DNA from: Stylophora pistillata | Taxonomy: Eukaryota | Reading direction: 5' to 3' | DNA length: 64,000 nucleotides | Assembly (NCBI RefSeq): GCF_002571385.2 | Contig: NW_019218040.1 | Span: 15,939-79,938 of the forward strand | In this document: piece after piece, positions 2,153-62,800 of the stretch | Position numbering within the stretch: position 1 is the first letter of the stretch | Layout: every line of letters starts with the position of its first letter | The notes under the pieces: model-generated | Database searches by the model: none | The model's input: only the letters and a program-made list of their open reading frames with translations | What the model was told of the DNA's origin: nothing | Made by a program: the position numbers and the translations under genes

Positions 2153-3781
2153 TGTGACTAAACATTATTCGACTAAAGACCTTGTTGGTCTCACGCATAT
2201 GCATCTTGGTAAACGAAAACCTGTTAGGTTTCTTTAGGGAGGCCCTGAGTAAGAGCTAGCATGACCTAATTTGCATAATGGCAGTAAAAGCCCTTGTGGA
2301 GGTGGAATGGGGTCGGTCGACGTCATTTTCTGAGAAAAGAAATGAAGGGCTTAACTCCTTAGCCCTGATTTTGCCTTTATTTGTGCTCATGCTTATTTTA
2401 TCTGTCTGGGTGTAAACGCTGTTCAATCACGCGATGTCTGTTCACTTTTCGTCCTATGGTTCTTCAGAGGTGAGACAATTAAAGCAACCGAAAAAGAATC
2501 ATGTTAGCTTGTATCAGATTAATTCTCACTGCTCTTATCAGGAAATCACAATTTCGGCGCTGAAGACTTCGTTTTTCTAACGAACTTCAACTCGCTTCTT
2601 TGGGTAAAAATACAGGTACGACATCGTATCAGCAGGACTGTATGAAATATGAAAGGATTCACAACTAAAAGCAGCTATCAGATGGAAAGATGTTGGCAGA
2701 TCAGATGTTTGAAAATTTTTTTGGGGATATAAACAGGTTTGCGTTAAAGGAGAAATATGTCTTTATCGTCCATGACAACCAACCACAGGTAACCCAGGCT
2801 CCATGCAAATATGTTGTAATAAAATTCATAACCAATATTTGAATCATTTTGAATCATTTGAATCAAGGTCGTTACTTTGAGACGACATTCTTCTAAGCCA
2901 AGAATCTGTAGACTTAAATTACGGGCTACAAAAGGATATCTTGTGAAATGCCACCACTTTACCTGCAGCGGTATCATGACTGACGTCACACGAATGACGT
3001 CACACGAATGTCTGAGGTACTTAAAAAAGAGAGAACTCGTTCATTTACCATTGTCTGTTTCGTTGGTGGAAAAATTTGAACAGAAGTACTTTTACAGATA
3101 AAAGCTTTGAAAGTTTTAGGAGCAAAGGATATCTGGTCTCAAAGTTAAAGGGACAACGAATAACTGAACTGGAACCTTTTCCCNNNNNNNNNNNNNNNNN
3201 NNNNNNNNNNNNNNNNNNNNNNNNNNNNNNNNNNNNNNNNNNNNNNNNNNNNNNNNNNNNNNNNNNNNNNNNNNNNNNNNNNNNNNNNNNNNNNNNNNNN
3301 NNNNNNNNNNNNNNNNNNNNNNNNNNNNNNNNNNNNNNNNNNNNNNNNNNNNNNNNNNNNNNNNNNNNNNNNNNNNNNNNNNNNNNNNNNNNNNNNNNNN
3401 NNNNNNNNNNNNNNNNNNNNNNNNNNNNNNNNNNNNNNNNNNNNNNNNNNNNNNNNNNNNNNNNNNNNNNNNNNNNNNNNNNNNNNNNNNNNNNNNNNNN
3501 NNNNNNNNNNNNNNNNNNNNNNNNNNNNNNNNNNNNNNNNNNNNNNNNNNNNNNNNNNNNNNNNNNNNNNNNNNNNNNNNNNNNNNNNNNNNNNNNNNNN
3601 NNNNNNNNNNNNNNNNNNNNNNNNNNNNNNNNNNNNNNNNNNNNNNNNNNNNNNNNNNNNNNNNNNNNNNNNNNNNNNNNNNNNNNNNNNNNNNNNNNNN
3701 NNNTCCTTTACTCATAATACCATTTGATATGGCAGATGCGGAAAGAAAAGCAAAAATGCTACTGGTAATAATGTCTCTGAT

Positions 3782-4171
3782 CGGGGCGGTACTCGATATA
3801 TTCCTGGGTGGGGAGGTGCGGCGCGGCCCCCCATACCCTGACCCTGTTTAAGACAAATATCGCTGATTTTCTTACCCTGTTTAAGACAGAATTCCGATTT
3901 TTGAGACCCTGTTGAAGACATTTATTGTGCCTGGTAGCAATGCCAAAATCAACGGAATTCAATTTTAATTAAAATTATAGCTTGTAAAAATTTTGCTGTT
4001 TATCTTCCAAGTAAAGATATCCTGTTTAAGACAAAAATTGATAAATCGATACCCTGATTAAGACAAAAAATGATAAATTCGATACCCTGTTTAAGACAAA
4101 AAATCTCGAAAAACATACCCTGGCTGGTCGCACGTTCCCATTAAGCCCTTATAAGGGAGTACCCCCCCCCG
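3782..4171. mobile_element. Non-autonomous DNA transposon (MITE) with TIRs and target-site duplication
   Basis: Termini are CGGGGCGGTACTC ... GAGTACCCCCCCCCG. TCTCTGAT is repeated at 3774-3781 and 4172-4179. The internal motif ACCCTGTTTAAGACA recurs about 5 times. Confidence 0.85.
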
Positions 4172-5726: not shown

Positions 5727-8700
5727 ATGAATTCTGTTTGGAAGAACACAAGAATAAGCTTACTGATGATAAGTTTTGTCTTCCTGGCAAAGTTTTCAAG
5801 TGTTCAGACCCGTAAGTATCAGATTAAGTCAAAATCAGCTTACCCGTTTAATCGATGAAAACTCCGCTATGAGCTNNNNNNNNNNNNNNNNNNNNNNNNN
5901 NNNNNNNNNNNNNNNNNNNNNNNNNNNNNNNNNNNNNNNNNNNNNNNNNNNNNNNNNNNNNNNNNNNNNNNNNNNNNNNNNNNNNNNNNNNNNNNNNNNN
6001 NNNNNNNNNNNNNNNNNNNNNNNNNNNNNNNNNNNNNNNCTTTTGACTCGATTTGGCCTGTTGGAGTTCCATGAAACGAGTTTCATTCAACCAAGTTAAT
6101 TACATTTGCATGCATCGCAATGTTTTAAAATACAAAGCCCAGGTAATCATCTTACGTTTTTCAAATTATCATATATTGTTTCACGCCAGAATGCAGATAA
6201 ATAAAAAATTGATGTGAATGAAGAGTCAATTGGGGTAATTCACCTTTAAAGATAATTTGTCATCAATCCATATATCTAAGCTTTAAGAAGGTCACTAGAC
6301 CTCCTCGATGCTGTGTCCAGTTAATATCTACGATCCCGAGTATGCCTGCTCCTCTGTAATGTTAATGCTTAATCCCCAGCCAGGTCTTTGATCTCAAAAA
6401 CCTTTTTATGAGGAAACCTGACAAGATTTCCGTAGAACCCCATACTTCATTCTCCATACAAGAAAACAGAAGCAAAACAATAGATTACCTTTGGGACTTC
6501 GGCTTTGTTTTTGATTGGTATGGGGTTATACGGAAATCTTTCCGGGAATCTCAGTTGGTAGTGTGACCCATGCAACAAAGCAACGTCAGAAGTTATGTAT
6601 TGTATGCCTCGTAAAGGAGCTATCACAGAAACAGGGATTACCAAATGAAGAATGTTAACAGTATATTGAAACACATCACGCACTGATAACTGATTTTTTG
6701 TTTTTGTTTTTTTTTTCATTCATAGAGAGTTTGACACCAAACTTCATAGTAAAACCAAAGAATATAACAGCTGAGTTATATTCCAGAGCAGTTATAACGT
6801 GCACTGCAACTGGCACACCGAGACCCACTGTGAAGTGGGTGAGATACACTGGCAGTGGAGAGACTGTGATTAGACATGGTTTCAGACATGTTATTATCGC
6901 TCCAAAACTCTATATCTACCCCTTACTATGGTCAGATGCTGGAAAATATGGCTGTGTAGCCCAGAATATACATGGAAGAGCTGAAGCTAATTTTTACATT
7001 AGCATAGTAACAGGTAAATAAACTCTCCAAATTCACTCGGCAACAGTTTTGAATTTTTAGTTTGCTGTTCAGCCAGGTGGTCCCTTCCTTCTCACCTTAA
7101 AAAGGGAAAAGAGTTGCACAATTTGCTACACAATCTTGTACCTTTTTCTCATTGACTTTCAATTTCCTGCAATTTGATTGGTTATTATAAACATGCCTTG
7201 AAATCTGATTGGTTGCTTTGTTTTGGTGTTGCTTTCTCACTGGCTGGGAAAAAGTTGCTATTTAGTGCAGACTCAGGAATAATTCACACTGCTGAGAGTC
7301 ACTCAGACTGTAAAGATTACCAGTGATATCAAAATGAATTTAATGGGTTTACATGTATTTTAACCAAAAAAGATTAATCAATTTTTTTCTCTCTCTCCCA
7401 TCCAGTTAGTGCACCCATTTGGAAAAACAAGCCACAAAATGTGACATTGTATAAAGGCCAAGAATACACCTTGCCATGTGATGCAATTGGATACCCTGAG
7501 CCAGGATGCTCTTGGTCACACAATGGACATCTTGTGGTTTCCTCTAATCCTGTAGCTATAGGAAAGAATTTAGTGTTTTCCCCTGCAAAGTATTCCCACA
7601 CTGGATGGTACACATGTACAGCATCTAATTTCAATGGAACTATTACTTCTTCACTCTATGTTGAAGTGGTCTCAGGTATGTAATTTAATTTATAACAGTG
7701 GAAGTACTTTTCCAAAAACCTTGTAGTGCCACTAAAGATTGTAGTCTAAGATGTCACAAAGAATTCCAAAGTTTGAAAGTTTACCAAATACAACCTTGAG
7801 GTCGTCGTGCACACTGTTCAAGATTCAAATGTGACATTCAGTCCAGTGTTATCAAGACTAATTTGGATGAAAATTAAATTCATATGTCCTGTTGAATGGT
7901 TATGGAACTGAGCAGCTTGAAAGGAACCTGGGACCTTGGATTTAATCCTTTTCACCATAACATCAGTGGGCATATTCTTCATATACTGTTCTCTACACAT
8001 TTCCTAAAGCACCGACAAGGAAAATTTTGGTGTAAGAATCAAGAGCTTTTTGAGTCGATGATCATAATCTCCTTATTTTTGTGACATTAATCAATATGTG
8101 ATTTGGAATTGATACTTTAAGGAAGAATCAGATGCTAGTCAGTCTAAGGGTGTCAAAAGAATAATATTAATTTTTCTCCTTCCCTAATAGACTTACATAT
8201 TAATCACCGTTTTTTATTAAAGATCCATCAATTGTTATGCAACCGGAGGATGTCCCAACGGCTATCGGAGGGATTGTAGCATTATCTTGTGGTGTTGTTG
8301 GCAGTAGCACGTCATTCTCGGTCAAATGGACTCGGAATGGCAGTGATTTAAGGGAGGACAGCTCATTCTCCTTAACAAACACAACATGGCACAATGTTAA
8401 GATATTTAAATTGAAAATTGTTGGAGTTCAACGTCGTCATATGGGGAGATATCCTTGTATAGTGACTAATTCCCAAGGATTTGTAAAAAGCAAGAAAGCC
8501 AGAGTTCATTTTTCTAGTAAGTAATCTGTTTGTGTGTTTGCATGAACTGCTTCAGTCTGTAAGATGTGAGATGTTTTTAGGATTTCATTGAATGTAAACA
8601 GCTGCTGGTTTTGATGGAACCTGATTTCAATAAAATGTTTGGAGAGCCTGTCTTCAGGCTAAATGAAAAAATGAAAAACAGAAACTACATACTACACACT

Positions 8701-11700
8701 TCAAGGACACTTACTATTAATAGTGAGGTGACAAAATGTGGAGCCCAACTCCGTGGAGTACCCTATGGATTACCTAAATGGAGTACCCCTAAAAATCATG
8801 TATTGCTCAAATAAAATACTAGTATATAAAGATGGTGAATCGTTTAGATTTGCATATTCCAAAATGTACTGATTTTGAACTTGCCAGCTCTCCAATTGTC
8901 ACAGTTCGATGTTGTCCACAAATTGACCACCGTCTTGAAATATTAAGCTGTGACATTTGGAGAACTGACAAGCTCAAAATATTTTAGGATATGTAAATCT
9001 AAATAATTCACCATGTTTAAAACTTTTTTTTTTCGACCAATTCACGATTTTTAGGTGTACTCCATTTAGGTGCACCATAGGGTACTCCTTGGAGTAGGGC
9101 TCTGCATTTTTGTATTTTGCCATCTCCCTGACATTAAAGTCACAAAGGAAAAGAACCATTAATTACTGTTAGGTGTTTACATCTGGAAGAAACCCTGTTC
9201 CTTGATTTTCTCATATTTTACAAATTTACCTTGAAGTCTAAAAGAACGTGCATGTACACTTGTACGTTCTTCTTAAATGTGACATGCCTGTGTATATTTT
9301 TGTGTATACTTTTTCACTTAAAGAAGTTTTCCATACATGCACCCATTCCATTGTAAGGAAAAGTATAATTTGCATCTGTACTCATTCACATTGCTTCAAG
9401 CGCCATTGCAATAATAGTCCCCAGCATGCATAATAGGCCATGTTACAGTTGTGTACTTGATTGCCTAGCCTCCTATTTGGAGTGAAGCTGACAGTGACAT
9501 TGTTTTGATAGAGGCCGGTATCTGTAATTAGCATGATAACAATTAAAGTACTTTACAATTGAAAAGCATAACAAGGTCACCCTTAGCCTCACTCCTGTTC
9601 AAAGGCTTGGCAACTGAGCACCCAACTGTGAATTGGACTATTTCCAGGTTAAAGTAAAGTTGTTGTAGGTTTTTTTTTTTTAGAATATTTTCAATTGATG
9701 GTATCTCTGTACAAAAATGACTGCCATAAAAATTTCTTTTTGGACACAACTTGTGCTCTTCAAACATTTAATTTCCCCTCTTTTTATTAAAGACTGTCTT
9801 TCTTGTGTCGATTGGGTATCCATGTTTCTTTTCTTTTTTTTTTTTTTTTTAAAGGTTCTATCATCCCTTTGAAAGTCGAAGTATCAAGACCAGCAGTAGT
9901 TGCTGAAGTTGGGTCTGATGTTGAGTTGAAGTGCCTCTTTAGTGGAAGCCCAATACCAGAAGTAATTTGGTACAAAGATGGAAGGAAAGTCACAGATGTT
10001 GGATTTCAATTTATCCGAGGTGTAGGAACAAGATTTGAAGCTATTCTAGAATTAAGGAGTGTCACAAGATCAGTTTCAGGTCATTTTGTTTGCTCAATAA
10101 GTGGTGTGGCAGAAACAGCAGAGGGGAGCATAACATTGTTTGTTGGAGGTATGTTTTATTCCTCATCACAAGAGCATTAACCATTATGTCTTTCTCAGTT
10201 AGTATGTGGGATTTGTTTGGTCAATTTAACAAGCCAAATTTCATTTTATGCCTCACTAAATTCAAAAATATTTTTTGAATCGAAATCTTACCCCTTTATT
10301 TGAACCAGGAGATATAGTAATTCTCTAAATGTTACCAGTAACCTTGTAGAGACCACTTTCATAAATGGCAGCCGGATTAACATTCTTTTGTTTAAATTTA
10401 AATTAGCCCTACTGGCCAGTACAAAATTCAAAAGAATACATTATCTCAAGCGAGGCCAGAAGGGCTAATTTAAATTTAAACAAAAGAATATTTATACGGC
10501 AGCCATTTATGAAAGTGGTCTATTCGTTGTTCCTACCATATGTTTGAGAACCTCATATTTTCCACATGGATTTATGGCCCACACAGATATCTTTTTAGTT
10601 TATGTTGAAACTTTTCCAGTGTGTCCAATGATTGGGGCATAGTTGACAGAAGATGTACTATTTAAACAGCATTAAATATGTTTTTGTTGTTATTTTCTGT
10701 AGATGGAAGAGTACCTGAGGTCAAATCATTGCAAATGTATAAAGAGACCAGGAAGGATTCAAACATCACTCTACAATTCTTCATAATGAGTGAAGCTGAA
10801 CCAGATGTCACATGGTACAAAGATGGAAATCAGCTAGAAGATCCTGGAACCATTCAGCTACATGCTAATGGCACATACAGGGTCAAACTTCGGATGACTT
10901 TGGTGCAATACAGTCAAACTGGGGTTTACACCTGTAGTGCTCAAAACCACTTTGGAACTAGTTCAGCAAATATAACTTTGGCTGTCAAAGGTAGTTAAGT
11001 AAATTTGCACTACATCCCAAGGTGATCAACCTGCTTTCAAAGACTTCACCTTACTAGCTATTAATTAACTGTCATCCATCAATAAATTTTCAAGGTTCAT
11101 TATTTGGAAGTTAAGCTCTTGAATATGCTCTCCTTAGGTCAACATCCCCTTTCTTGTCTAGCTGGCAATTTTTTTGGCAATGAATATAAATGAATTTACT
11201 GTTAATAAGGGCTGTCTGTGGATGAAAGAAAATTTTGAAAGGCACAGGTAGGGCCTTGACCCAGAAAGGCTCTAAAAAGAGAGAAAATATCTGACCTCTG
11301 AACATGAATTTTTAGCCAGAAGTTTTGTGAGTTTAAAATTTGTATCAGCTTGCAAAATCCAAAGTAATGCATGCTCTCTTTGTGCATTATTGTATGAGTG
11401 GATGTGCTTGGAAAGGTTTGGGACAAAAAAAAAAATAATAGTAACTCCTTGCTGGACTTGGAGTGGTTTTTAAGTTTTATCCAAAACCAGTGAACAAAAA
11501 AGATAAAAATAAAGGAAGTTAAAGGGCTAATTGAATGCCCAAGATCTGCCCAGTGAAGCTATATTAAACAATTTTAGTTGACCAAGGAGGTCCAGACTCA
11601 AAAGAAAATTTTTTTTTTTTTTATTTCCACAAAGGAGTTCCTGAAGCACCCTCTAATGTCACAGTCAAACAAACATCTTTCCAAACTGTGCTGGTATCAT

Positions 11701-24800: not shown

Positions 24801-26362
24801 TGATAACAAACCAATCGTTTCTGTTTCCCGCGGACGGAGCACATTTTCGAGAAGATACTTCATTTGTAAGAAAGTATTCCTACAACTTTTTCAAAGGTCT
24901 GTCAGGTTATTACTCGTTCAGATAAACTTTCTCCGTGTTTCATTTTTTTCAGAAAATGCCAGAATTTTTTTCTATTTCATGACTATATTATTCGCTCGAG
25001 ATTAGAATATATAGCGAGTAGCGTAGCCAATCAGACTGCAGCATCTTTGATTGGACGCTAGTGGTCGATTTTATATATAAAACGTCGAGTATTTCCGTGT
25101 GGATATCACCTCCCCCTTTTTTTTTTTTGTTTAAGTTGTACAGTAATTTATAAATGCCAACTTGCGTTTTTCTTTTTTTATGAAATAACTAAGATACTTT
25201 GAGGACCCTGATTGGTCGAGACCTGATTTTATTCCTTTTTTTACAAAAGCAATAAACTGCACTTTCTATGCGTTTACCGGCTAAATAATCACACTTAGAA
25301 TTGTTGCGACAACACGAGAAAAGTTAAAATGGTTGTTTGTTTTTTAATACATTTTCCTATTTTGGATTTGATAAGAAAAAGAGAACCTGGTATCTATCGA
25401 TAAACTCCTTTGAATTATTAACCCAAACCTCTTCAGATATCTTACCTTCCACGGTCAAAAGAGCCGTAGCACTCAGAATAGTCTCTCCATGTTTTCCTCG
25501 GATGCAACAAATGTACTTTCCAGTGTCGTTGGCGCAAAGCTTATTAATCTGCAGTTTAGTCGCTGCGTTTGACAGCTTGTATTTGTTTTCACTGAGATTA
25601 GGCGCCAGACCATTTTCAAACAGTACGAAATGACCCGAGGTACCTTGAAAGGACCAGGTTATGTTTAGTGGCACTTTGCTGTCTGTATCTTGGCAGATAA
25701 GTGTCGTATTGGATCCCTCCAAGGCAAGTGTAGTGTCATAAGAGAACACAAACTTTCCTTGATGTGACAAAAATGCGCAAGATCAGTTTTGAGCGCAACT
25801 GAGTCTGACTGCTATCATAACTTCAAAAATTGTCAAGTGTGGAATGAAAAGCACATATCGCACAGCTGAGCCACGCGCATGTGTTTTAACAATATCCAGG
25901 ATTTTTTTCTTTCTTTATATGCAGTGCACTTCCCATAGAAAAATGCGAGAGACTGAAAGAGAATTTTTCGAGTTCGAAAAACTGAAAAGCGAAATAAATA
26001 GATAACATATGTTGCGACAAAGACAAATTCTCAGCTGAGCTTAAAATTATTTGCTCCAAACGGCGAATTGAGCGGAATTGTCGTGTAATTTATGAAACTT
26101 CGCAAGTTAACTATTATCTCTTGCTATCTTTTCTCGTTTTGTCCAAAAGATGAAATGCCACGAAACAAGAGTTTCTTTCTCGGCGTAACTGTCCAAAAAA
26201 CTTAATTCTTACGGTCAACACGGCTTTATCCGTAAGGTAGACTGAGAAATATTGGAATTCAGCCGATTAGTATGGATAAAATTGAACGTTATATATCTTA
26301 CCTGCTACTGTATTCGGGAAAAGACAGATGAAAACCGTGCTCAGTAGTATAAAAATCTTCAT
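21869..26362 (-). CDS. Secreted or cell-surface protein: signal peptide, Ig, Ser/Thr/Pro-rich stalk, Ig, FN3-like; 3' end unresolved
   Basis: Phase-1 exons: 26362-26302 (MKIFILLSTVFICLFPNTVA); 25757-25446 (Ig: LIC..W..LQINKLCANDTGKYIC); 24545-24183 (low-complexity stalk); 23055 into the gap at 22904 (Ig: LQC..WYK); 22174-21869 (FN3-like: VQVTWS..LQPRRAYLLNI). The next exon may be in the gap 20913-21567 or at ~20532. Confidence 0.8.
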
Positions 26363-27525
26363 TGGACAGCCACGTCAAAGACAGTTTAACCAGTCTCAAT
26401 GTAACATAAACCGTCGCATGGTGTTCCTCGTTTGCTGGCGAATTCAATTTGATTTGTTTATCGTCTTTGTGACGTCTTAACGCGCGCGCGACCATGTGTT
26501 CCCAGAATTCCAAGCGATTTCATAAATGCACCGGTTTCAATCTCTTATGGTCAAACCGCGTACTCGTCACAAAAATGTTTGAAAGATCTCACACTTCAAA
26601 GTTGGGCCTCGATCCCCTGGGTTCGTGCGCATGAGTATTTCTCCTCGCCGATTTCCATGACTTGCGCGACAGATGAATGTGGGAAATGTGAACTGCCCGT
26701 GGTCTACAATGTACGCCCGTATAAATCTTCAAAGAAAGAGGTGAAATGATCTCAGTTTATCTATGGATGTCCAACAAATCTTTGAGCGTACTTTGTGTCA
26801 TTCAAATTATGTCGGGAGCACCATCCATTTGACGCCAAACAATTTTAATAAGTATATAGAGGTTATAGTCTACTAATAACATTCTAGTGTTGAACGTTGC
26901 AATCAAATGTTTCTCCAACAAATCGCCTATTTTAACATTCGAACTCCGTCGTCCATGAGAAACTCTAGAATCTTATTGTAGATGCATAGAGTTTCATGGA
27001 GTGCAATAGACGCAACGATGACTCGCGTGCCCTTTCTCAGAATCAATACCATATTGTTCTGCAGGAAGTATTTTCAGATTCAAAAGGCGGCCATGTGCAA
27101 TGAGAAAACTCTTAGGAAGACAGTCGGACCTGTACATTCATTTGAGGAAAGAATTCCCTTCTTGGTCGGACTTGTGTAGCCGACACACCAATTTTTGTGA
27201 GATAACGATCAATCAATCTCGACTGTCAAATTACTTGGAGCTACTCTAGGTTATAGTTTTAATAAATTACATTCCACCAAGAGAATGTCAACTGCATAAC
27301 ACTTTTTACATGTAACACCTTATAGTGACTGGCATCCAATTCAATTCTCCTTAGAATCGCATTATTGAATAAAATCTCGCTTTCTGATTGGTTATTGGTT
27401 AACGAAGCGAGGTATTCAGCGTGGAATTGCGAGTTGAAAAGAGGCTAAGTGATATTGTTTCGCATCTACGAAACAATTGCATAGCTAAAGGCAAACTCGC
27501 GGTCTGATTGGCTATCGAAGAAAGG

Positions 27526-27558
<33 letters not shown>

Positions 27559-27769
27559 GGATATTGCTGACGTAAGTCGCGAGCAAAAATTGTTGCTATC
27601 GTGGAAACAAAATTGGAACTCGTGCTACGAAAATGTCAAATTGGAAATGAACAAAGTAACAGAAAATAAATGTCTGCCAAATTCTGAAGTGAACTTGAAA
27701 GTTTTAGAAAATTTGAGGAAACTACTTACACTCAAAAGTACGAGAAAACGCATTGAAGAAAAAACCAAA

Positions 27770-28330
27770 ATGGCAGAGACGAGGGAAGAAAGCCAAACGG
27801 CAGTTCTTGCCGAGGAAAACCCAACAAGCGTCGCGAAAGAAAACCAAACAGGTATTAATGCCGAAAAAGGTCAAGCATCTCTTTCGGAAAACCAAACAAT
27901 TGTAAGCTATACAGATGACGAACTGGTCTCTTAAGGACAACATGGTTTCAAAGAACACTAAAAAAAAAGTACAAGTACATACATACACCGTTTGCAGTCT
28001 CGGTTCAAGGAAATGAAACACGTGCAACAAATTTATCTCGATGCAATTTCAAAGCAAGAAGCACCGCAGCTTCTCAAGCACTTCTTTATAGAAATAAGGC
28101 AGACGACAAAAGAAAATAAAGGCAAAGAATATGAACCAGGAACATTACAAATTTACAAATTAGAGTGGTCGCAATACAGCTATTCAAGAGCTCCGTGATG
28201 ATTTCGACCCACTGGAGTTCTCAGAGCTGACTTGCCACACCAATCCGGAATCCATATCCAGCTACAGCCATAATCCTTGGGAAAAACAGCGGCAAATGCC
28301 GAGTAAGTTGGCCGGTTTCAACCTAAACAC
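27770..28330 (+). pseudogene. Internally deleted DUF3504/Crypton-type tyrosine recombinase remnant (copy A)
   Basis: LLKHFFIEIRQTTKENKGKEYEPGTLQ is fused to the C-terminal SGRNTAIQELRDDFDPLEFSELTCHTNPESISSYSH, with frameshifts. It is a clear paralogue of 30900-32200. Confidence 0.8.
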
Positions 28331-29499
28331 AACAACTACCAACAGCGATTCAAGTTATCCTTTACGGGGGATTATCCTCAACAGCTCAGCCCCGCCAACC
28401 GTGACAAGAGTGCTAGTCGATCTGGTTACCTGATGGCAGAGGCAGTTGGCGGAATGTTTTACTGGAGTAACTTTTAATAATTCTCCAGTATATATTTCAA
28501 TAACTTTCAGTCCAGCATGACACCAATAAGCGACTCTCTGCAATAAAAGAAAAACAGTTAAAATGGTGACTTTTAAGCTTTTTTCAGCTAATTTTTGGAA
28601 AAGTTAACTGAGAAATTCCAGTGTTAATCATTATATTTTGAGTACAACTTTTTTATAACTGTAATTTAAAGCACTTACCGGTTCTTGTAGATCTTGTTTT
28701 AGAACCTGAACGCTTGAAATTTTCCTTTCGCTTGAGTATTTCAGTTGTTGATTGTCGGAGCCACATTTTGCCAAGTTCTATGGTAGCAGGCAAATCCAAG
28801 TTATTCTTTGAATATAGAATTTTTCTACAAAATCTTTGTCTTAAATAACTCCGTATTGTACTTTCGGTTTTTCACTGAAGATTATTGTAAAATGTGATGT
28901 ACTGCTTTGTCCACGAGGTTGACATAAAAATGGTTTTCATTCTAAAAATAACTTGTTACCTATTCGCTAGATCTTGACACCTGACTTTGAAAGGGTTTGC
29001 ATTGTCTGCGCACTGGCGCGGCTCACAAAAATGCATGTACAAAATGTTTGGTTTCCCCAGTGATTTAGTGGCTTTAGCTATGCGATTCAAGAGAAATTCA
29101 CTGCCTGGCGAGTGAATTCCACGCTGTAAACGATCTTGTCTTAGATTGGTCAAAAAACTGACAAGTGAATTCATGCGTGTAAATGAACTTTATTTTCTGA
29201 TTGAATACAAAATTCTCTTGTGCAAAAGAAAAATAAAGCCGGCTGTTTCATTGGCCAATTTACAACAGGCCACACCTTAGCTTCGTGTGACAGAAAATTC
29301 GACTTACAAACAAATCTAGGAAGGAAGGCAGCTCAAGGTTCCTAAACATTTTCTCTCTATCGACACCAAAGAATATTTCAAACATACTTTTATGGTATAA
29401 ATATTTGAAAACATTTAAGCTGAAAAACATGCCAGAGTCAAGTCAATGTCCGTTGCTGGAATCTGAACCAAAGTTGATGTGGACATGTGCTTGTTGTAT

Positions 29500-30733
29500 C
29501 GTTCAGCTGTTGAAGAGCGAGCAAAGATAGCTGCTTGATGTTGTTGCCGCTCTCATCTCGATCTTTTCTTGAATTTGAGTGCCGGTGTTAATGGCGGTGC
29601 CAGAAGAATGAGTGCTTTCAGCTATCAGACTTCTTGACAAAACTTCACTGCAGTGTTGTAGTTGTGAAGTGGAAGGCTGCCAGACTCTGCTCACTACGGT
29701 GATCAGATATTGCCATAATATGGCGATTTTAGATTCCGGCATTTGACCACAAGGTGATCGCAGTGGCGCTGACGCTGAGGTTGGTGTAGACTTTCGGCAG
29801 TTTTGCTGCCTTGCTGATGCTTTTCATCATGTTGTCGAGCTTGTTGACACCGATCGGTCGAGCATCGTACCAAATCTCATCCTCGTAATTCCACTGCTTC
29901 TTTGGATATTGAAAAAATGCATCGCTTTTAGGATTCAACTTCGAGATATATAGCAGCATGGCTTTGTAACCGTCGTTTCCATTAGACGTTTCGTACATCC
30001 GTGCCAATTTTTCACTGCTTGGGACATCGCTTACACCACCTGGATGATTTTTAGTTACCTCATCATTGCGCCACGGTTCAAAGGAGGCGCATTGAGGTAC
30101 CTTTCGAAGGAATGCCGGAAACCAAGAAGAGTGGATTTACTGTACGGTTCACCAGATCTTTTTCTTGCTTCGGCATAAAATCTTCGTAAGTTTGTGTCCA
30201 GTTGTCCATTTTGTGTCCAGTTCATTTTCTCGATTGTTTCAATTTTTTTCTCGTTGCACCAAGCTTGAATAAAGACGAAAACATTGCGGGTTAATTTTTT
30301 AGAATAAGCATATAAGTTTTCTTATACCTTACATTGTATGTTTAAAATTACATCAGTCGAAAACCATGACAGTTAAGTATTAGTAACGAGCTGCTCCTTT
30401 GAAATGTTTACATTGCCGACAGATTACTGCACTAGAACTATTGTTTTCATAGCAACTGTAAAGAGAATAAAATACTCTTAAAAACATTCAGATAGAAGTA
30501 TTTACCTTTGAAAGTTCCAACAGACCAGTTTGTTATTTGGTTGGTTATTTCAGAGTGTCTCTGTGCCAAGATATCTTCCAACTCGGACTCACTCAGAGTT
30601 GCGAAACGGGATGATGGCAGTGCTTGTTCTTTGTTTTCTTTTACTTTTCGTTCTTTTCGGGAAGTTAAAAAATCTCCATTCTCAAAGAAAAAGTAGGCAG
30701 TTCTTCCTCATCAGCTTGCTCAGAATTTTCCAT
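29500..30733 (-). pseudogene. Decayed intron-containing DUF3504/Crypton-type tyrosine recombinase (copy B)
   Basis: Exon 30733-30506 (SRFATLSESELEDILAQRHSEITNQITNWSVGTFK), GT-AG intron 30505-30264, then LRRFYAEARKRSGEPYSKSTLLGFRHSFERYLN, an internal deletion, and WYDARPIGVNKLDNMMKSIS..YTNLSVSATAIT..HIMAISDHRSEQSL. It carries stops and frameshifts, and HxxR is mutated. Confidence 0.85.
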
Positions 30734-30899
30734 GTTTGGCGTAAATTGTCACTGAAACCTTAACCAGTTAAAATCTCAAAGTAAAAAAATCGCGGAGAAA
30801 ATGTTTTTCTCGAGGGATTTCTTTGCTGACGTCATGAGCGTGCACAATATTGAATTTGATTAGACAAATTTACTAGCTATGCTATAACGCTTTTTTAAA

Positions 30900-32198
30900 T
30901 TGTCACTCACACAGAAGAAGAAATAAATATCTCTAAAGGCGACAAGGCCTCTGAAAACACGAAAAAGAGTACTAGTGCCTCCGTAGGCCGCTTGCAATCG
31001 TGATACTTACAAAAGTACAAAACAGCTGAACTTGAACAGCATTTCTGAACCAGAAGTTTCGCAACTTCATAAGAATTTTTTTGTCGAAATGCGACAAAGA
31101 GGAAAAGAAAACAAAGGCAAAGAATACGAGCCGGGCTCTCTACAGACATACCATAGTGATGTTCGAAGATATTTTCTGCAGCGTCCATGTCCTCCAGGTC
31201 CTGACAACTTTGATTTTGAGATTTTCAAGAAGTTGCCGCCATGCTGTCCGTAAAAGAAAAAGGATCTAAAGAGGAAAGCCCTCAGAAACAAGCCAAATGC
31301 AAGTGAACCGTTCGAATATCATCAGATTGAGCAAATGTGGTCCTCAGGAGCTATAGGCTTGCAAAATCCCCGCTCGCGTCTCCATCTTGTTTGGTTGAAC
31401 AAAGTAACTCACTTAGGAATGAGAGCATTCAAAGAACAGTGTGATTGTCAGGTAGAAGATTTCATCGTCAAAGAAGAGTACGTCGAATACAAAGAGCGTC
31501 AAACACTGAAAGAACCACTAAGGTGACGAAAAAAGCTCCAGGAAAGGGGCGCGAAAGTACAACAACAAAATATGGAAAACCGATGGAGGAGAGAGGGATC
31601 CATATCGAGCCTTTGTAGAGTATGTTGGCCACCGTCCTCAAGGTGACAAAGTTCCTGGGAATTTTTTGCTAACTCCAGTAGACGTGCCAACAACAAATGT
31701 GTGGTATAAGGCAGTTCCTGTGGGTCGAAACACACTGCCGAAGCAGATGAAGACCATTGCATCTGTTGCTTCTTTGGATGGCAAGTTTACAAATTCAAGT
31801 GGCCGTAAAACGGTAATTCAAAGTCTTCGTGAAGACTTCCACCCTCTTGAGATCTCTGAGCTAACAGGTCACGTCAACCCGGATTCAATATCCAGCTAGG
31901 GCCATCATGATTCCTCTAGAAAAACGACGAAGGATGTACCACTGTCACAGCTGCCAACACCAGCGGCGGTCCACACACTGCAGCTTTGCGAGAAGTTAAG
32001 GTCAACAGCCTTGCAGCTCCATCAGTAGTTGGCGATAACACAACGGCAATGAATAACGGCAGTGATGGTCAAACAACAAGAGTTTTAGGTGGGCTGTTCA
32101 CCAATGTATCGTTCAACAACTCTCCAGTAAATATTTCCATCAACGTTCAGTCGAATGTTCATCCCAACGATTCAGCAAATGGCAGTTGCCTGCCATGA
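30900..32198 (+). pseudogene. Decayed DUF3504/Crypton-type tyrosine recombinase (copy C, KIAA1958-like motifs)
   Basis: FFVEMRQ..GKEYEPGSLQ, HLGMR, VEYKERQT, WYKAVPVGRNTL, FTNSSGRKT, ELTGHVNPDSISS*. There are several frameshifts, and the codon at the catalytic Tyr position is TAG. Confidence 0.85.
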
Positions 32199-35100
32199 GT
32201 TTCTACAATTACAAGGATCAAATTTTTCGGACTTTTCATCTTACACTTCTTTGTTTTTGAAGGAATAAAATATTGATCAATACACGTATTTAAATTTCAA
32301 GGTACTTACCTTTTATTAGTCGCGATGTTAAAGTTTCAGTGCTTTCGCTTGCTCACTTCATTTTTCTCAGTTTGCCACCAGAGGTAAAGGTGTAAATTAT
32401 TTTCCTTCTCGAGCAAATGATTTAGAATTTTGAAGAAAGATGTTATAGATAAACGGCTTGTAAATGCAGTGAAATGCCACTATTATCCTGAAGATAGTGT
32501 GAAGCTTGTTTAAAAAGTTTGAAAACTAATGTAAAAACAAGCACGAGGTACAAATAAAGTTATCGAAGGTTAAACGTGCACGACTAACCTAGCTTTCTAG
32601 TCGCTAAACGCAATGACAGTTCTGACTGTTGACTTTGAAATGGCTTTCTGAAGCGCGCTCGGGATAAAAACAAAAAATTATATTGCCATTTCCTTGTTTA
32701 CTTATTTTTATTCAGTTATACGATACAAGTAAAATTCGCGATTCGTGCGATATCGGTTTCCGCGTGAAACTTAACGGAATTCCCGGAAACTTAGCGGAAT
32801 TCCCTCGTTAGGGAATGAATTTTCCTGTACAATATTATCCCTGAATCGAACGTTCTGGTCGCAAGAATACAAAGGAAATGATCATCAACTAATGAAGCTC
32901 TTGATTGTTTAACAAATTTTCCTTGTGAGCACCTTAGGAAATGTGTAGAAAACAGTAGGGAGAGTATGCATACTGATGTTGAGAGTGAATTGGCTAAATT
33001 AAAGTAGATCATTAGAACCCAATCGCAAACACCGAGTATTTTATCGAAGTGGGAGTAACTAGTGGTGGTTAGTTATATTACCGAGCCGCAAAGCCATGAA
33101 AAGAAGACCATGTATATAACGGAAATAAATATCTTTATTCTGCACCACAATGTGGCGATATATCACAGCGCAACGCATTTGATTGGTTTAACAACCGGGA
33201 AAACGCGTCATTTAAAAGCGAATTGCACATATTCAGTTTAGATCGAACCCTCAATTAGACAAAATTCTTAACATCTTAACAGTACAGGAGTCGTTTCATT
33301 CTTGGAACCAAAAACATCATTGATATTCAACTACAAGGGTCCTGGTGAATTTTCACGAGACCTGTTCGACTGACTCCGTAAGTGGTTTTTGCCCTTTCGT
33401 TTGCATTTTCACGTAGTGTGGTCGTCACACTGTTGTGCATAACAAGGTGAAAAGGAAACAAATCAACTGTTTGGCCACTACGATTTAATGAACAATCGTG
33501 TAGCTCCCTTATAAAATCCTCTCCAAAACAACACAAGGCCTTTGGGAGTAAAAGGAGCAACACTCTAACGACAAACGTAACAATGGCCAAACAACGTTCA
33601 TCAGTTGAAATTCATTATAAGAAAATTGGAGTTGCAAGACAAAACAATCTAGATTGAATATTGTGCAACTAATGCAATTTATAACACAGTGAATGCTGCC
33701 AAATTAATTCATTGTACAGGCATATTAACCAGAGATACAGAATAAATTTTCACTGGATAAAAAGTGCATTAACGTGTGGTAAAAATGACAAACATAACTC
33801 ATGGTTTTAAGTTAGAACTAATGACGCTAACGTTTAACTAACCGTGGAATGGATCTTCAGCTCCATTTTTTGGTAAAGAAATGAAGCCGAATTTGAATGA
33901 AGAGTGATGCAGTTTTATTGCTGCAAGGTGCTGTGTTTCTGGCCCGAAAAAAGGCCATAGCAGGCGTGCACTATGAACGCTTTGGCAAAAAGTGTTAGAT
34001 TCTACAAAACAATTTACAACAATTCTCTTTACTGACCATAACAGTGATTCCAATTCAACGCAACACAACGCGTTGCAGCGTCATAAAACTCTCACTCTTC
34101 TTACACTACCTAATTTTACTGAAATGAACGATTGGAAATCGCATATTTAAAATAGTTCACATGCAACGCTGAGGGATCGTGAAGATGTCTACGCAACATT
34201 AACCCTCTCTCTCCCATGATCGATAATTTAATTCTCCAACGCGATACCCATAAATTTCTTTGTTGATAAACCCTGAGAAAATTTTGTGTTTCATCCAATC
34301 AATCTCCATGAGCTGATAATTTTCTCAGTTCTCAAAACCTTTTTGCCAGAAAGTGCGTGAAAATTCTAGGGGGGGGGGGGAATTCACATTCTGGTCAATG
34401 ATGGGAACAAGAGGGTTAACCAGTATATTTTGTTCAAGTAAAGAGGGAAACCTAGTTATGCAAAGTAAGATGATGCTATTCCTTCGTCTGGCACAAACAA
34501 AAAATGCGGCGTACAATTATTCTGAGACAGTCTACCATAGGACAAGTATTTACAGACGAGATTGTTACGTATAACAAGACGAACAGAGTACCACCGAAAT
34601 TATCCTTGCAATTTACGATAGCTTATACGAATGGTGGCTTATTTAGGCCGAGCCAAAAATACAATTTACAGGAGAAAACGAGGGGGGAGGGGGTGGGGTG
34701 AATCCTCTCACACCCAGAATTTGACGACGGCTTGAATTTCAATAATTAGTAGTCCTCAAGATTTTTTGAAATTTTATGCAATAGGTGTAAAAAATTTCTT
34801 TCAAGGTCTTTGATTTAAGACCTGGAAATCAATAAGAGAGGCTGATTTAAAAAGCAGAAAGAAAAACCAATAAGATTAACTAAGAAAAACGAGCGATTCT
34901 TGACGCAGTCGTGACACGTGTTCACGACGTGACGAAAACGATTTTTGAGTGACATCAAAACTTAAAGCTTAGACAGCTTAAAGCTTAGACAGTCACGCTA
35001 CAGCCTGGGAAGATTAACATTGAAATGATCGTGCACAGATGACGCTTCATTGAACTTAACAAGGAAAAGAAAAAAAAAATGTGCAAAAAATGTGCTCATA

Positions 35101-35358: not shown

Positions 35359-38300
35359 CTACGCTAAATTGCTGACACCGTGAGCGACCAAGCCAACAGC
35401 CTGGGAAGGATTCTGGGATAGCACAGTGTCCACAGCGCGGTGGGTTACCTGAAACAACAGCGAAGAGGAAAAAAAACTGTAAATATATTATAACAAAATA
35501 CTGACACCTCATTAAGGCTGCAGAACTATGTCGAATCGTCAACAGTCACAAACTCAACTTGGAGTCACGATAGTGCTTGTATTTAGCAGTAAATTTAAGC
35601 TACTTTTATCAGTTCGCGAGCCAGAAGCGAGTGATCTGCGAACTTTTCGATCGTTCTACAATCATTCCACGTGGTTTATTTGGCCGGTAAACCGACTTAA
35701 AGAGTGGTCTATTGCTTTCATAAATTAAAGTGCGATTTTCAATGGGTTTACAAGTGCAATAAACTAACGCTTATTGACCAATCGGGACGGTCGTCGTACT
35801 TCATCAGTTATTTCATAAACGAAAATAAAAACTGTTACTAACCGCATGTAATTTAAAACTATTGTACACTTCAGTCAGCTCCTCAAGCATGTACTGCAAA
35901 AAGGAGAAATTGGTGTAAGATGATAACAAAGGATATCTGACAATCATTTCCTTAACCCTTTCACCTCTTAGAGTGATCAGCATCTAATTTCTCCTTACAA
36001 TATCACCCCTGAATCGAAAACTAAGGTCGAGAGAAGACAAGAAATGATCACAAACTAACGAAGCTCTTAATTGTTAAACAAATTTTCCTTGTCAGCACCT
36101 TAGGAAATGTAAAGAGAACAATATAGAGAATATGCATACAGATATTAGGGTGTAAAAAGTCAATTTTAATAAATGTACTCCTTACAATGTACAACCAATA
36201 TTTGACGTTTCACTAACACACTAAAAAAGTACCACTGGTGTCAAACAACTCGGCGATTTATCAAACGTAAGTAATTTGTTTTCGTTTTTACCTGATTGAG
36301 AACTGTAAATCCAGCAAGATCACCGCTGGTCTTTCTAGCGCAATCTTGACAATAGACCGAGTGTTTCTTGGTTCCTGTCACGAACAGAATATTGAAAACC
36401 TCCACCTGAGGAGAAAAAGAGAATGCACAAGTTAGTAAGCGGGTCACAGTGCTATTGGACAGAGTATCGTTAAATCAAATACGAAGTCATCAAAGAGCTC
36501 CTTTCGATGGTGTCGTTAACCTAAAACCAAAGTAGTCCTAATGGAAATCAGAAGAAAGGTGCCAAGCTTCCTAATGCATGGGATAACGTTGGCAAGAGAC
36601 TTCTGAGTGTACGATGATGTCGTAACTCTTATATATGTCGAGACAAGCTTACAAGGAAGAACATAACACAGCAGAACAGAGAAGCTACTTACCTCGCACT
36701 GGGCACAGTAATGAGATCCTTCATTTTGTCTTTTGCCATGCCACACCACATCAATACCAGCATGCTTTAGTTTCTCCACAGTAATCTGACAATACCTAAG
36801 TGACCTGGCCAGCACAACTCTGAAAGCAAACGCAACACTTACAAGATTAGAACTAGCAGAGGATGGGAACAATGAAAGTCTAGCCGCAAAGATTTCCAAG
36901 AACATTTCTATGAAAGTACCACTTAGTGAAATATTTATTAGATTCATGGATTAACAATCACTAAAGGAATAGAAGGGAAACAAGAATATAACTTTGGCAA
37001 GGACTCACCTGATGTGTTCAAACAACTTTCTTTCTGTAACTTTAACATTTCTAGCGAGATTCCATGACAAGTGCAGCATAGCCACAATGGACTTCTCACC
37101 TGAAGGTGAAAATGCAGGGAATTTCATAAACAGTGAAGATCAGCAGCACTGAACTTAACAGCTGGACCATGAAAATAACCCTTTAAGTTACAATAGCAAA
37201 GAGCCTTCTTCTAAACTGATCACTCCTCGATCATCATTCAAAAATGTTTTTTGAAGCCTTAGTCAGAAGTAAAGTAATCACAAGGCTGGTAAATCAAAGT
37301 AAAAGCGATATAACCTGCTGTCAGTATCCTAAAATGAACATGATACAGCTACTGCTTAGCTACGCTAAACCAAGTGAAACAACGTTGAAAGAAGAACAAA
37401 AAAAAAACACTTGGAGATGTTTGCAAATGGAGATAGTGTTGTTCTTACCTTGTAGTTTGTTCCATTCATATCTTTCGATGGCTGCTGTGTACATATCCTC
37501 TGCAAAAATATCATTTCAATATTACAAACATAAATCGTTGCAAATGAACAAGGTACAGTAGGGTAGTTTGATTTCGTTTTATGAAGTCTCTAGAAAATGC
37601 ATTCAATCTCCTTCACTCACCTGTAAGAGGACCGACATTCCAGGCAATATTGTTACACCAGCCCTAATAAATGCAAAGGCAGTTTATTAGAACCTTGGCA
37701 CTTCTGTGATTTCAAGTTTACACTGCTTCATCCTCTAACTCCCATGAGTGACCAAAACAAAATTTCTCCTTTACAATATCAATACAATATCAGAGACGAC
37801 AATCAAGAAAAATATCGATCACGGGATTATTAGTTGATCCAATACCAAGTTCTCCAAACTAACACAATAAGAACTGTATGGCAGACAGTAAGGAGATTTA
37901 CGAATGAGATCTTAAGATTGAAATGGTTCATTGCTCACCGACGACTGCACCCAATGCACCACCCCAGGACTAAGCCAGACCAGGTCACCAGGCCTTTGTA
38001 TGAATCTGTACACTGGAACACGCTCCTCGTAGAGTTCCTCCAGAATGGGCCACCATGAGCCTGCACAAACAACGAGATAAAGGAAACAAAAAGGGGGATT
38101 ACTTAGTGGAAATATCAATTTGCCCGAATGTAGGGAGTTCCAATTTTTAACGATATATATGGATCGGTTAAAGGAGACACCACCAATCATAGAAATAGGG
38201 CCAGTGTTTCTACCTACACGTCGTCCATCGCTGTCTCAGTGTTTGAGAACACAAATGCTGTTTGGAGCTGGCAGGCTGTAGAGTGAGGGCTTGTCGTGTA

Positions 38301-55964: not shown

Positions 55965-56402
55965 ACGGTGGCCTACAGGGGCAGTACAAAAGTATTTTTC
56001 CCAGTACAAAAATATTTTTCCCAGTACTAAAATATTTTTCCCAGTACAAAAATATTTTTCTCAGTACAAAAATATTTTTCCCAGTACAAAAACATTTTTC
56101 TCAGTGCAAAAATATTTTTCCCAGTACAAAAATATTATTCCCAGTACAAAAATAGTTTTCCCCAGTACAAAACTATTGATCCTAGTACAAAACTATTGAT
56201 CCTAGTACAAAACTAGTTATCCCAGTACAAAAATATTTTTGTACTGGAATAAATATTTCTTTACTGAGATAAATATTTCTGTACTGAGATAAATATTTCT
56301 GTACAGGGATAAATATTTTTGTACTGAAATTAATATTTTTGTACTGGAATATATATTTTTGTACTGTGATAAATATTTTTGTACTGCCCCTGTGGGCCGC
56401 CG
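55965..56402. mobile_element. Foldback-like element whose arms are 20 bp tandem repeats
   Basis: Termini CGGTGGCCTACAGGGGCAGTACA and TGTACTGCCCCTGTGGGCCGCCG. About 13 units of CCAGTACAAAAATATTTTTC are followed by about 8 inverted units, with the switch at ~56235. Confidence 0.85.
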
Positions 56403-59230: not shown

Positions 59231-59303
59231 CAACCTCATTCCCAGGGCCTTTTCCCTCAGTTGGGGGTGCCAGCTAAGGGAAAAGGCCCTGGGAACGAGG
59301 TTG
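59231..59303. mobile_element. 73 bp mini-MITE nested in a TTAA-type MITE
   Basis: TIRs CAACCTCATTCCCAGGGCCTTTTCCCT and AGGGAAAAGGCCCTGGGAACGAGGTTG, flanked by ACCTTCATA/ACCTTGATA. A relative lies at ~60511-60568. Confidence 0.85.
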
Positions 59304-59833: not shown

Positions 59834-62800
59834 TCAGTCCCATTTGTACCAGTTTTTACTCCTATGTAGGGCCTCTTTCCATTCGTCATAATTCTTCAGG
59901 AATTTGTCTCGTATGGATGCCTTCGGTTGAAAGAGGGCCTGGGAACAACGGATTGCTTTCAACTCGTCACGTGACTTCCAAACACCTGGTATAGTAATAA
60001 AATAAAACTGAAGAATAGAGCGCTATTGAGCGACGTAGAGGAAAAACGTAAGTTACGAAAGAAGCCATTCAGAATAAAGTAAAGTATGATACTGAACGAG
60101 CCAATGAAAATTCAAAGGAAAAAGACGAGGAAATTGATAGGAGCGCGGGAAAAAGCACGTGAACAGGTTGTAACCGGTTGCGGTTAACATCAGATCGGTC
60201 GAGTAAAATGCTCGCGTTTTCTGGGCCAATCACAAAAAAGTGAAAGTAATGAAATCCCGGACTACCTTTGGCATTCAAAATAGAATTGCTTTCACCTCAA
60301 ATTAAAGCTGTTTTTTGATCGACGTAATTGGGAAACTTGCTGTTATATAAATTTGCGAGATCAACTCGCAAGAAGTTCTGATAATAATAATAATAAAAAA
60401 AAATGAAACTCTGCGTAATTAAAAAAACGCAAATGTATGGCTCAATAAATCAACCAGTAAGCAAGCCACGCACAAAATTTATACTTTATAATTAGACATT
60501 GAAACAGTTTCCTCGTTCCCAGGGTTCTCCCGCTTTCTCGGAAGGGAAAGGACCCCGGGAACGAGGTTAATGAAAACAGCACTGTCAGTGACATCTTGAC
60601 ACCCTGGACATAAATAAACTTACCAGCTGAGAGACCAGCCAAGAAGGCTGCACCTAAAGTGGACATGTCGGTCTGAGAGGGTCGATCTATCGTCTGACAA
60701 GTTAAACTGCTCATTAATTCCAACACAAAGTCGTTGTTAGAAATTCCGCCGTCAACTCTGGAAAGATAAAAAGCCAGAGGACTTCATTAACACTTGGATA
60801 GTTGAAAAATCGGTCGGCTTCACACATTTCTTTTTATAGCTGTGTAATGCTAACTCTTTTCGAAAACTGCACCCAGAAATTGCAGTGGAACCTCCTCTTG
60901 TGCAGCGTCGAAGTAGTGGTCCCAGCCACATAAACTTGCCTAGTGATTGGTTTAGAAAACTCGTAACAGTCTCGACCAATCAGATCCAACTTGGTCAATC
61001 TCGTTTTCCCGCGCCTAAAGCTTGCTGTATGTGTTTTCTTTGAGTTCTAAAGGATTTCGTTGCCATGTTCATCTTTTTCTGATTGTCCAATGCAACAACT
61101 TCAGCTTTGCTTGCACAAGACTCAGTCAAACAAGGCTCTATCCTACGTTTTGCCGAAAACTTATTCTTAAATGGTTCCAAGGTTGTTTGTTTCGTTGAAC
61201 CTCGACGATATTTAATGTATATGTCTGTAACTAGAGTGCGTGATTGTCAAACTGTCTGATCTTACTTATTGAGATGGGTGAGAGACCTGGAAATTTTTCA
61301 AGTTTCTCACGCACTAATTAAAGCTTAAAAATTAACAAGACATCTTTCGGTTTTCAATAACCTGCATTTCGTGTATTACTTAAAAAAGGTCTCCTTCGCG
61401 CGCGCAAACAAGAAACGCATTTAAAAGATCTGAAAACGCGTTACCATGACAGCAGAAAACGACAATACAATTTCTTTGTGTGCGTAAGGTAAACGCTAAT
61501 TCTGCTTCTCACGCCTCTAAACGAATTACCTTTATGTGATCACTGGGTGACGGTCCTTTGAATTGTTCTCAATGCATTGTGAAAGGTGGTTGAGATTTTG
61601 CGCCTTAAGATTTGAAATCAAAATGAAAACTTACTTGATTGACGACATTAATGGGATATGGGTCTCTCCAACCACAGTCTCGTACAGCTGAGTAAACCTG
61701 AGTAAATCAGTTTGACGACGTTATTTACAAAAAAGAAAAAAAAATAGCGTATGTGGGAACTATCATTTAAAGATCCAGTCCACATATCAATTGAACTATA
61801 AAGGGGTTAAGTTTCTAAAGAAACTGTGATACTGCGTCGGCGCGGGGTATACATTTAACAACTGAGTATAGTGCAGCCGAGTAAACCTGAGTAAATCAGT
61901 TTGACGACGTTAATAACAAAAAGAAAAAAAAAAGCGTATGTGGGAACTATCATTTGAAGATCCAGTCCAAATATCAATTGAACTATCAAGGGGTTAAATT
62001 TCTAAAGAAACTGTGGTACTGCGTCGGAGCGGGGTATATATTTATTTCGTTACCCACACCGACGCAGCCCCAAACAGTTTCTTTAGAAACTATCAGCCTT
62101 TATTCATTTATATATTTAACAACTGAGTTGATACAGTAAATTGGCCACCGTAAAGAATTTCCAAAGCTGACATTTCGAGCGTAAGCCCTTTGTCAGAGCG
62201 AATAAAATTAAAGAAGAATAATTAAAGAATTCGCTCTGACGAAGAGCTAACGCTCGAAATGTCAGCTTTAGAAAACCCTTTACGGTGGCTAAGGTTGTCG
62301 GGAAGAAAGCGTTAAAGTGCACGCAACAGCCCCAAAGGCATTGTGGTTGCTTAACCTCAGGATTTCAGGGAAATCTAAGAAAACGTCAACGTAAGGACGA
62401 GGCATTGCGGATTTAGTGAATTCATCTATTTATTTTAATTTCACTTATTAGAATTCACTGATTACCGGATAACCAGATTACCTTTCAAGATTGACGTGGG
62501 CACTTTTGTCCTTTTTGACGACAAACTTTTTCCAAACAGTAATTGCCCCTTTCTTCCTCCCTGCGTATCTAGTTTCACCTTTCCTTTCGAAAAACTTTAA
62601 TTATTCAAAGCCATGATTAACTCAACCAACGTAGCCGGCAGTTTTTTGCACGTGTGGGAAGAATAAATTAAGCAGCACCGTTGCGTACATATTTATTAAA
62701 CGCACAAAACAGCTAGCTCTGCAAGTCACCATTTACCTGAAAGCTATTGACTCCAAAATAGCTCTTGTTATGTGAGCTTTGTTAGTGGTGGATTTTATTC

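Follow-up and report, generated by a model that had tools for sequence, protein, structure and literature searches.

A probable nest of three single-gene Crypton elements behind a head-to-head recombinase gene pair in the coral Stylophora pistillata

We analysed a stretch of 64,000 nucleotides from Stylophora pistillata (contig NW_019218040.1, positions 15,939 to 79,938; called the window, in whose numbering all positions are given), which carries three genes for DUF3504-type tyrosine recombinases of Crypton transposons, termed A, B and C. A sequence-only reading had located these genes, had noticed that B and C diverge from each other over a short distance, and had proposed either an element with two XerC/XerD-like partner recombinases or an element targeting its own relatives, with nesting as a further alternative. 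Our data argue strongly for nesting: the block is most probably a nest of three dead single-gene Cryptons within a split MITE (a miniature transposable element with inverted repeats), in which the B/C pair likely arose by serial insertion and one deletion. The features of the block are as follows.

27319 to 27353, + strand: left part of the MITE split by element C, ending in TA at 27352-27353 (rejoined flanks match an intact copy)
27354 to 27474, + strand: left end of element C, the first half of a duplicated left motif (left end of relatives; reads)
27475 to 29125, + strand: element A, an independent Crypton with one gene, belonging to a family that is sister to that of C, left end intact, right hairpin cut off (contigs, depth)
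27647 to 28546, + strand: recombinase gene A, dead (tblastn with P0103; DNA break points)
29069 to 29087, + strand: stretch inside A complementary to A's own left end at 27475-27493 (inverted repeat I14, 89%)
29115 to 29126, - strand: A/B junction, at the start of an A[AG]CGTGGAATT motif (same nucleotide as foreign ends in contigs L005, L008 and L038)
about 29126 to 30896, - strand: element B, a canonical-tetrad Crypton in reverse orientation, both limits putative (depth, contig joint, left-end-like sequence)
29443 to 30733, - strand: recombinase gene B, dead (tblastn, intron call, break points)
30897 to 30901, + strand: B/C deletion junction (L006 2229-2533 without window counterpart)
30899 to 32198, + strand: recombinase gene C, dead (tblastn with P0094 and P0103)
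32704 to 32827, + strand: right end of element C, hairpin remnant (hairpin alignment with L014)
32828 to 32980, + strand: TA followed by the right portion of the split MITE (empty-site match; read depth)

Element C comprises 27354-32827 and splits a high-copy MITE at a TA. Its flanks, rejoined with one TA, match the intact MITE copy at 35967-36146 across the join (81% identity, 186 bp, E 4e-44), by which the mapping of ends against an empty site suggested in the sequence-only reading was achieved for C. The bin 32767-32987 at the right part of the MITE has a read depth of about 3100-4000. A 4-bp direct repeat TCCT at the ends of C was considered and dropped, since the uninterrupted MITE sequence is recovered with a TA only. 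At the left end, 27407-27474 is 90-96% identical to the sequence 130 bp above the C-family start codon in contigs L003, L004, L006 and L012, and read depth at 27436 rises up to 1329-1468 compared to 1.6-3.7 in the flank. The two ends belong together because 101 raw reads from three runs join 27470 to 32697, with 12 further reads joining from 27467; these reads are short C-family copies having both ends without A or B. The terminal hairpin of the C family, 135 nt long, is intact in L014 and folds at -54.3 kcal/mol as DNA; in the window its left arm is deleted and the surviving arm carries a 20-bp tandem duplication at about 32766-32804, which accounts for the duplicated right motif reported earlier (~32766-32803). 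The duplicated left motif (~27377 and ~27497) likewise exists and represents the left end of C followed by that of A. Element C has TA on both sides and no long inverted repeat between its outer ends, in agreement with the earlier statement that long terminal inverted repeats (TIRs) are lacking.

Using 147 homologues as tblastn queries, matches in the window were confined to 27500-32500 and revealed three DUF3504-type recombinase remnants, A, B and C, and no others, all three dead. Gene A runs from the ATG at 27647 to a stop codon at 28544-28546, contains stops and frameshifts, and shows a central deletion of approximately 220 codons at 28149-28156 relative to P0103. Gene B, on the - strand as described before, starts with the ATG at 30733, contains a single GT-AG intron of 242 nt (30505-30264) and resembles P0001 at 80-93% identity; in addition to what had been noticed, it lacks about 100 codons at 30067-30070, corresponding to P0001 residues 50-151 including the first catalytic Arg, and has stops and a frameshift near the catalytic Tyr. 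Gene C aligns to P0094 from residue 82 on, confirming that it lacks its N-terminus of about 82 residues, carries frameshifts and has a stop codon replacing the catalytic Tyr position at 31897-31899. Its frame start at 30899 lies 165 bp from the ATG of the divergent gene B, close to the ~170 bp estimated before. PF12012 scores above the cut-off in the full-length relatives P0001, P0063, P0094 and P0103 and below it in the window fragments. Besides the DUF3504 recombinase no other gene, and no reverse transcriptase, was detected in the elements. We also asked whether the 3' regions of A and C might encode a further gene on the opposite strand; the part of the six-frame comparison examined gave frame-independent, stop-rich similarity and no cross-family protein match. 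The named homologues derive from stony corals and sea anemones, and several of the matching read runs are labelled coral metagenome. In both A and B, the start codon is preceded at 80-100 bp by a TGACGT(C/A)A word (27564-27588 and 30823-30847, repeat D19), which may be a promoter site resembling a cAMP response element.

Element A had been described as a deleted relative of C. It is deleted and related, and belongs not to C's own family but to a sister family having its own ends: A-family and C-family DNA are about 72-75% identical, and this in two short stretches only. Eleven contigs representing 9 different flanks place the A-family left end at one and the same base, corresponding to 27475; because A-family copies start at this base, 27354-27474 is assigned to the left end of C, and A lies 121 bp inside C. 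Element A is collinear with L009 up to 29123 and has a read depth of 54-97 throughout. Both families are dispersed and multi-copy with non-autonomous derivatives, as seen from the nine A flanks, the end-joining reads of C and the depth above 1300. A TA lies two bases ahead of the AATCGC start in 11 of 14 left junctions of the clade uniting A and C. Two A-family copies (L032:15080-15138 and L050:6790-6826) lie within GCATA-like short repeats resembling the element's own first bases. In run X15, a single contig connects 32759 with 27475, where a hairpin right arm meets the left end of an A-family element 7 bases away from the recurrent motif position; this may be another nested insertion or a head-to-tail junction.

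Element B adjoins the broken right hairpin of A. Read depth is 94-150 at 29152 and 26-45 at 30557-30998, exceeding the 0-5 observed over the 3' interior of B at 29231-29672, and from this, together with a single contig joining 29184 to 30679 by a weak joint with only 21 letters on its short side, we infer the limits of B; a left-end-like sequence is present in B at 30860-30890. In run X19 the depth at 29231-29672 is zero with flanks at 1.6-3.7, and the B copy may be absent in the individual sequenced there; such dips can be filter effects. At the B/C junction about 305 bp of C are gone, namely the rest of the 5' untranslated region and the first ~82 codons (L006 2229-2533), and the rest of A's hairpin is likewise gone at 30897-30901; these five bases fit the continuation of A's hairpin, possibly by chance.

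Whether B and C travel together was assessed in one metagenome scan with a C-clade alignment as query, i.e. from the C side only, which returned 76 loci. Aside from the query gene itself, a B-type gene occurs as a separate neighbour at none of these 76 loci, so that the count of divergent B/C pairs proposed earlier as a check, made from the C side, yields none besides the window. A close C-clade gene is present on 32 contigs; 1.4 kb or more of sequence is available upstream of it on 13 of them and downstream on 7. No B-type partner was found upstream in any of the 13 coral-metagenome contigs, which represent approximately 10 independent insertions as L006/L012, L007/L013 and L030/L033 share flanks. 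C's own family comprises seven contigs with 83-87% DNA identity, all of which break from the window at exactly 30899, upstream of which they continue into C's own N-terminal codons. Four of the seven reach the C left-end sequence 130 bp above the ATG with no B gene in between; as their flank is the same, they represent a single insertion.

These data suggest the following order of events. Element C would have inserted into the MITE at a TA, A would then have entered the left end of C, and B would have inserted in reverse orientation into the hairpin of A; a subsequent deletion would have removed the rest of the A hairpin and the first 82 codons of C, bringing the promoter of B next to codon 83 of C. 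The elements of each family would be cut out as circles by the tyrosine recombinase they encode and reinserted by it at a TA-containing site. This circle excision and integration model for Cryptons is that of Goodwin et al., as summarised in an excerpt of PMC3212892. The joined right and left ends of C are complementary over about 36 nt to sequence lying at the terminal hairpin's base, and the left end of A is complementary to the internal stretch at its hairpin base; by this complementarity the end junctions of A and C would probably fold. The landing site of B is likely not random because other Crypton-like ends use the same base.

Several observations weigh against the nest as described. 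The order of insertions is deduced from topology only. The limits of B and its independence are deductions as well, and no other B-family DNA was found in viral contigs with either the B alignment or the B-end pattern; in genome contigs the search for it returned only one distant bacterial integrase (31% identity), and the C alignment gave no matches in viral contigs. The depth on the 5' part of B (26-45) is similar to that on the C frame (10-35), and depth alone cannot separate B from C. C's own family is represented by approximately one independent full-length insertion. Finally, among the best 15 of 141 read joints none spans the whole block 27354-32827, and none of these 15 is a circle junction.

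Paired bacterial tyrosine recombinases such as XerC/XerD consist of two diverged recombinases, and B and C could be the two genes of one divergent element working in this way. The 165-bp divergent spacing, the 26% identity between the B and C clades, the similar depth on B's 5' part and the C frame, and the missing HxxR His of the C clade, as might be expected of a dependent partner, are all compatible with such an element. The C relatives, however, carry their own N-terminus and left end at exactly this point, the true left end of C lies 3.4 kb away at 27354, the 76 loci show no B-type neighbour, and A is a C-clade copy with an intact left end and no divergent partner. We regard the two-recombinase element as largely refuted and its probability as very low. 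It is similarly hard to credit that A and B are the two convergent genes of a single element (27475-30896) which entered C as a unit: the two are contiguous and jointly occupy the place of the missing part of C, but the A-family contig L009 runs on into its own hairpin where the window turns to B, depth is 54-97 over A and 0-5 over the 3' interior of B, and no B-type gene is found downstream in the seven contigs with at least 1.4 kb. The nest of three single-gene elements remains the reading we favour with high confidence.

Within this nest, the position of B raises the question of target choice. A/C-clade elements carry the motif A[AG]CGTGGAATT both in their left end and in their hairpin. A motif census gave 32 rows, of which 7 outside element ends were dropped and the remaining 25 correspond to 20 independent sites. 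Four of these 20 sites have a foreign Crypton-like end adjoining the motif's first base; the inserts are one small repeat family (L005, L038), another one (L008), and B at 29125/29126 of the window. Eight further ends, picked by a rule written after seeing the contexts, match the motif at 4-9 of 11 positions with a mean of 6.1 against a background of 4.75 (P 0.002). Nesting runs both ways, as the small CTGATTGG-type repeat that adjoins the left end of an A-family element in L008 is itself host to an A-family copy at L049:1739-1913. We tentatively propose, as a plausible model, that coral Cryptons home in on each other: families with TTAT or TAAT ends would integrate at an A[AG]CGTGGAATT-like site, likely a mimic of a recombinase-binding site from the other end, so that the ends of the C/A clade would act as a built-in landing pad, the nests would reflect target choice, and the clade would have spread with a Ser-variant recombinase. 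The dependence of the two small repeats on a recombinase is assumed from their CTGATTGG-type ends.

The earlier suggestion that an element targets its own relatives gains modest support in this soft form, but among the 14 A/C-clade left junctions only those of L049 and of A in the window lie in Crypton-like DNA, which is missing at the other 12. Two further points speak against the landing pad: A entered C at a site other than the motif, and the initial 57 bp of the host end in L038 are not found beyond the insert. Alternatively, the nest may be real while A and B became joined through a deletion at a microhomology, and the four junctions at one base mark a fragile or TA-rich spot rather than a choice by the recombinase. 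The B end at 29126 lies about 15 bp from a CTGATTGG-like motif compared to about 30 bp in other ends, AGC is possibly shared at the A/B join, none of L005, L008 and L038 contains both junctions of its insert, and hairpins break elsewhere too (L009, L012). Yet L005, L008 and L038 show seemingly intact ends, that in L008 being base-identical to the end of the same element in L049; three donors, two host families and both host ends are involved; and the eight rule-picked ends, lying outside the discovery set, resemble the motif above background, with the rule being post hoc. We consider this alternative doubtful, though a serious possibility.

The strong sequence difference between B and C noticed before is confirmed. 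Over 312 columns, the profiles of the two types share 26% identity, and B and C lie on opposite sides of a branch with 99% support in the Shimodaira-Hasegawa-like approximate likelihood ratio test (SH-aLRT), obtained from a quick tree of 52 rows only, with the more careful tree search incomplete and reference Cryptons not among the rows. In the B clade the HxxR His is present in all 74 proteins with the motif (91 examined), and R, R, H and Y are each at least 90% conserved (alignment A2); window copy B itself has lost them. Among 56 C/A-clade proteins examined, 43 have the motif, and 40 of these carry Ser instead of the HxxR His; R257, R383, H405 and Y414 are invariant in all 13 aligned. Conservation of the catalytic Tyr was taken from alignments A1 and A2, as a regular-expression census is unreliable for the C clade. 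The entire C/A clade (P0092-P0147; window 31785-31800 and 28149-28175) reads N-S-S-G-R-K where canonical relatives have N-H-S-x-R-A; with this variant it keeps the Tyr and is scattered over many flanks. By its residues B appears to be a canonical CryptonA-like family, whereas the C/A clade deviates from the R-H-R-Y tetrad used as criterion and yet looks Crypton-like by every structural sign. A sequence search of the PDB with the C-clade profile retrieved human QRICH1 (9hjt, E 4e-4), and the B profile retrieved weak integrase matches only (best E 0.029); an AlphaFold model from the C alignment had a predicted local distance difference test (pLDDT) score of 41.9. A distant DUF3504 gene with approximately 40% identity to C is found nearly unchanged in many coral contigs with long flanks (L015-L026, L031), possibly being a domesticated single-copy gene or one shared insertion.

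Elsewhere in the window, 25357-25782, 36516-36950 and 42252-43520 (all - strand) are probable host exons including an immunoglobulin-like domain, and some of these pieces presumably resemble a KDM6/UTX-type histone demethylase. Additional repeats that form hairpins or are of the CTGATTGG type, located at 7156-7344, 8733-9110, 10350-10521, 18291, 25080, 55966-56402, 59231-59303 and 62141-62292, are likely non-autonomous Crypton-like elements or other palindromic repeats.

CryptonA elements of animals, cnidarians included, were described by Kojima and Jurka 2011, in an excerpt of which no terminal repeats are reported for animal Cryptons (PMC3212892). As outlined in this excerpt, the families share with CryptonA a single DUF3504-type tyrosine recombinase gene, the absence of a further C-terminal domain and of long TIRs, and non-autonomous derivatives far outnumbering full copies; the B clade in addition keeps R, H-x-x-R, H and Y. 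They differ in that C is bordered by TA at either end, possesses a terminal hairpin of 135 nt and contains an internal stretch complementary to the junction, in that Ser takes the place of the HxxR His in the C/A clade, and in that B has an intron. Excerpts of further papers list the Crypton groups of Repbase (PMC5753468) and describe CryptonV from cnidarians as microsatellite-specific (PMC8869645). The families were set beside CryptonA by description and not by Repbase consensus, and Repbase Reports may already describe them. CryptonV are said to have been introduced by Kapitonov and Jurka in Repbase Reports in 2012 as target-site-specific Cryptons of cnidarians. Compared by description only, they are, like the families here, cnidarian tyrosine-recombinase DNA transposons with a target preference, of which the A-family copies in GCATA-like repeats (L032, L050) are reminiscent, but their reported targets are microsatellites and not a recurrent motif in the ends of other Cryptons; GCATA-like repeats are seen at 2 of 14 A/C-clade left junctions and not at the remainder. 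The domesticated genes KCTD1, KIAA1958, QRICH1 and ZMYM2-4, listed in the same excerpt of PMC3212892, have the same Pfam domain and lost the catalytic Tyr and the second Arg, whereas both residues are retained in the B and C clades, which occur in multiple copies with mobile ends; transposon-derived DUF3504 elements of animals keep the catalytic residues according to an excerpt of PMC13465315. As in XerC/XerD, two diverged tyrosine recombinases lie near each other in the window, but linkage is not conserved and the three genes are broken, each in its own element. A literature search, with Repbase Reports and supplements outside its scope, found neither a two-recombinase Crypton nor targeting of Cryptons into Cryptons.

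As a summary, the locus is a caution that nesting and deletion can imitate a divergent gene pair. The ends and targets of Cryptons are poorly defined, and for one family we provide a base-exact empty site with TA on both sides. Of modest value for Crypton biology are the ends pairing with an internal stretch and a candidate target motif common to several donor families, to which a mobile clade with a non-standard catalytic residue is added. Together with these features, the intact database relatives P0094, P0103 and P0018 offer a set of enzymes and substrates for an excision and integration assay.

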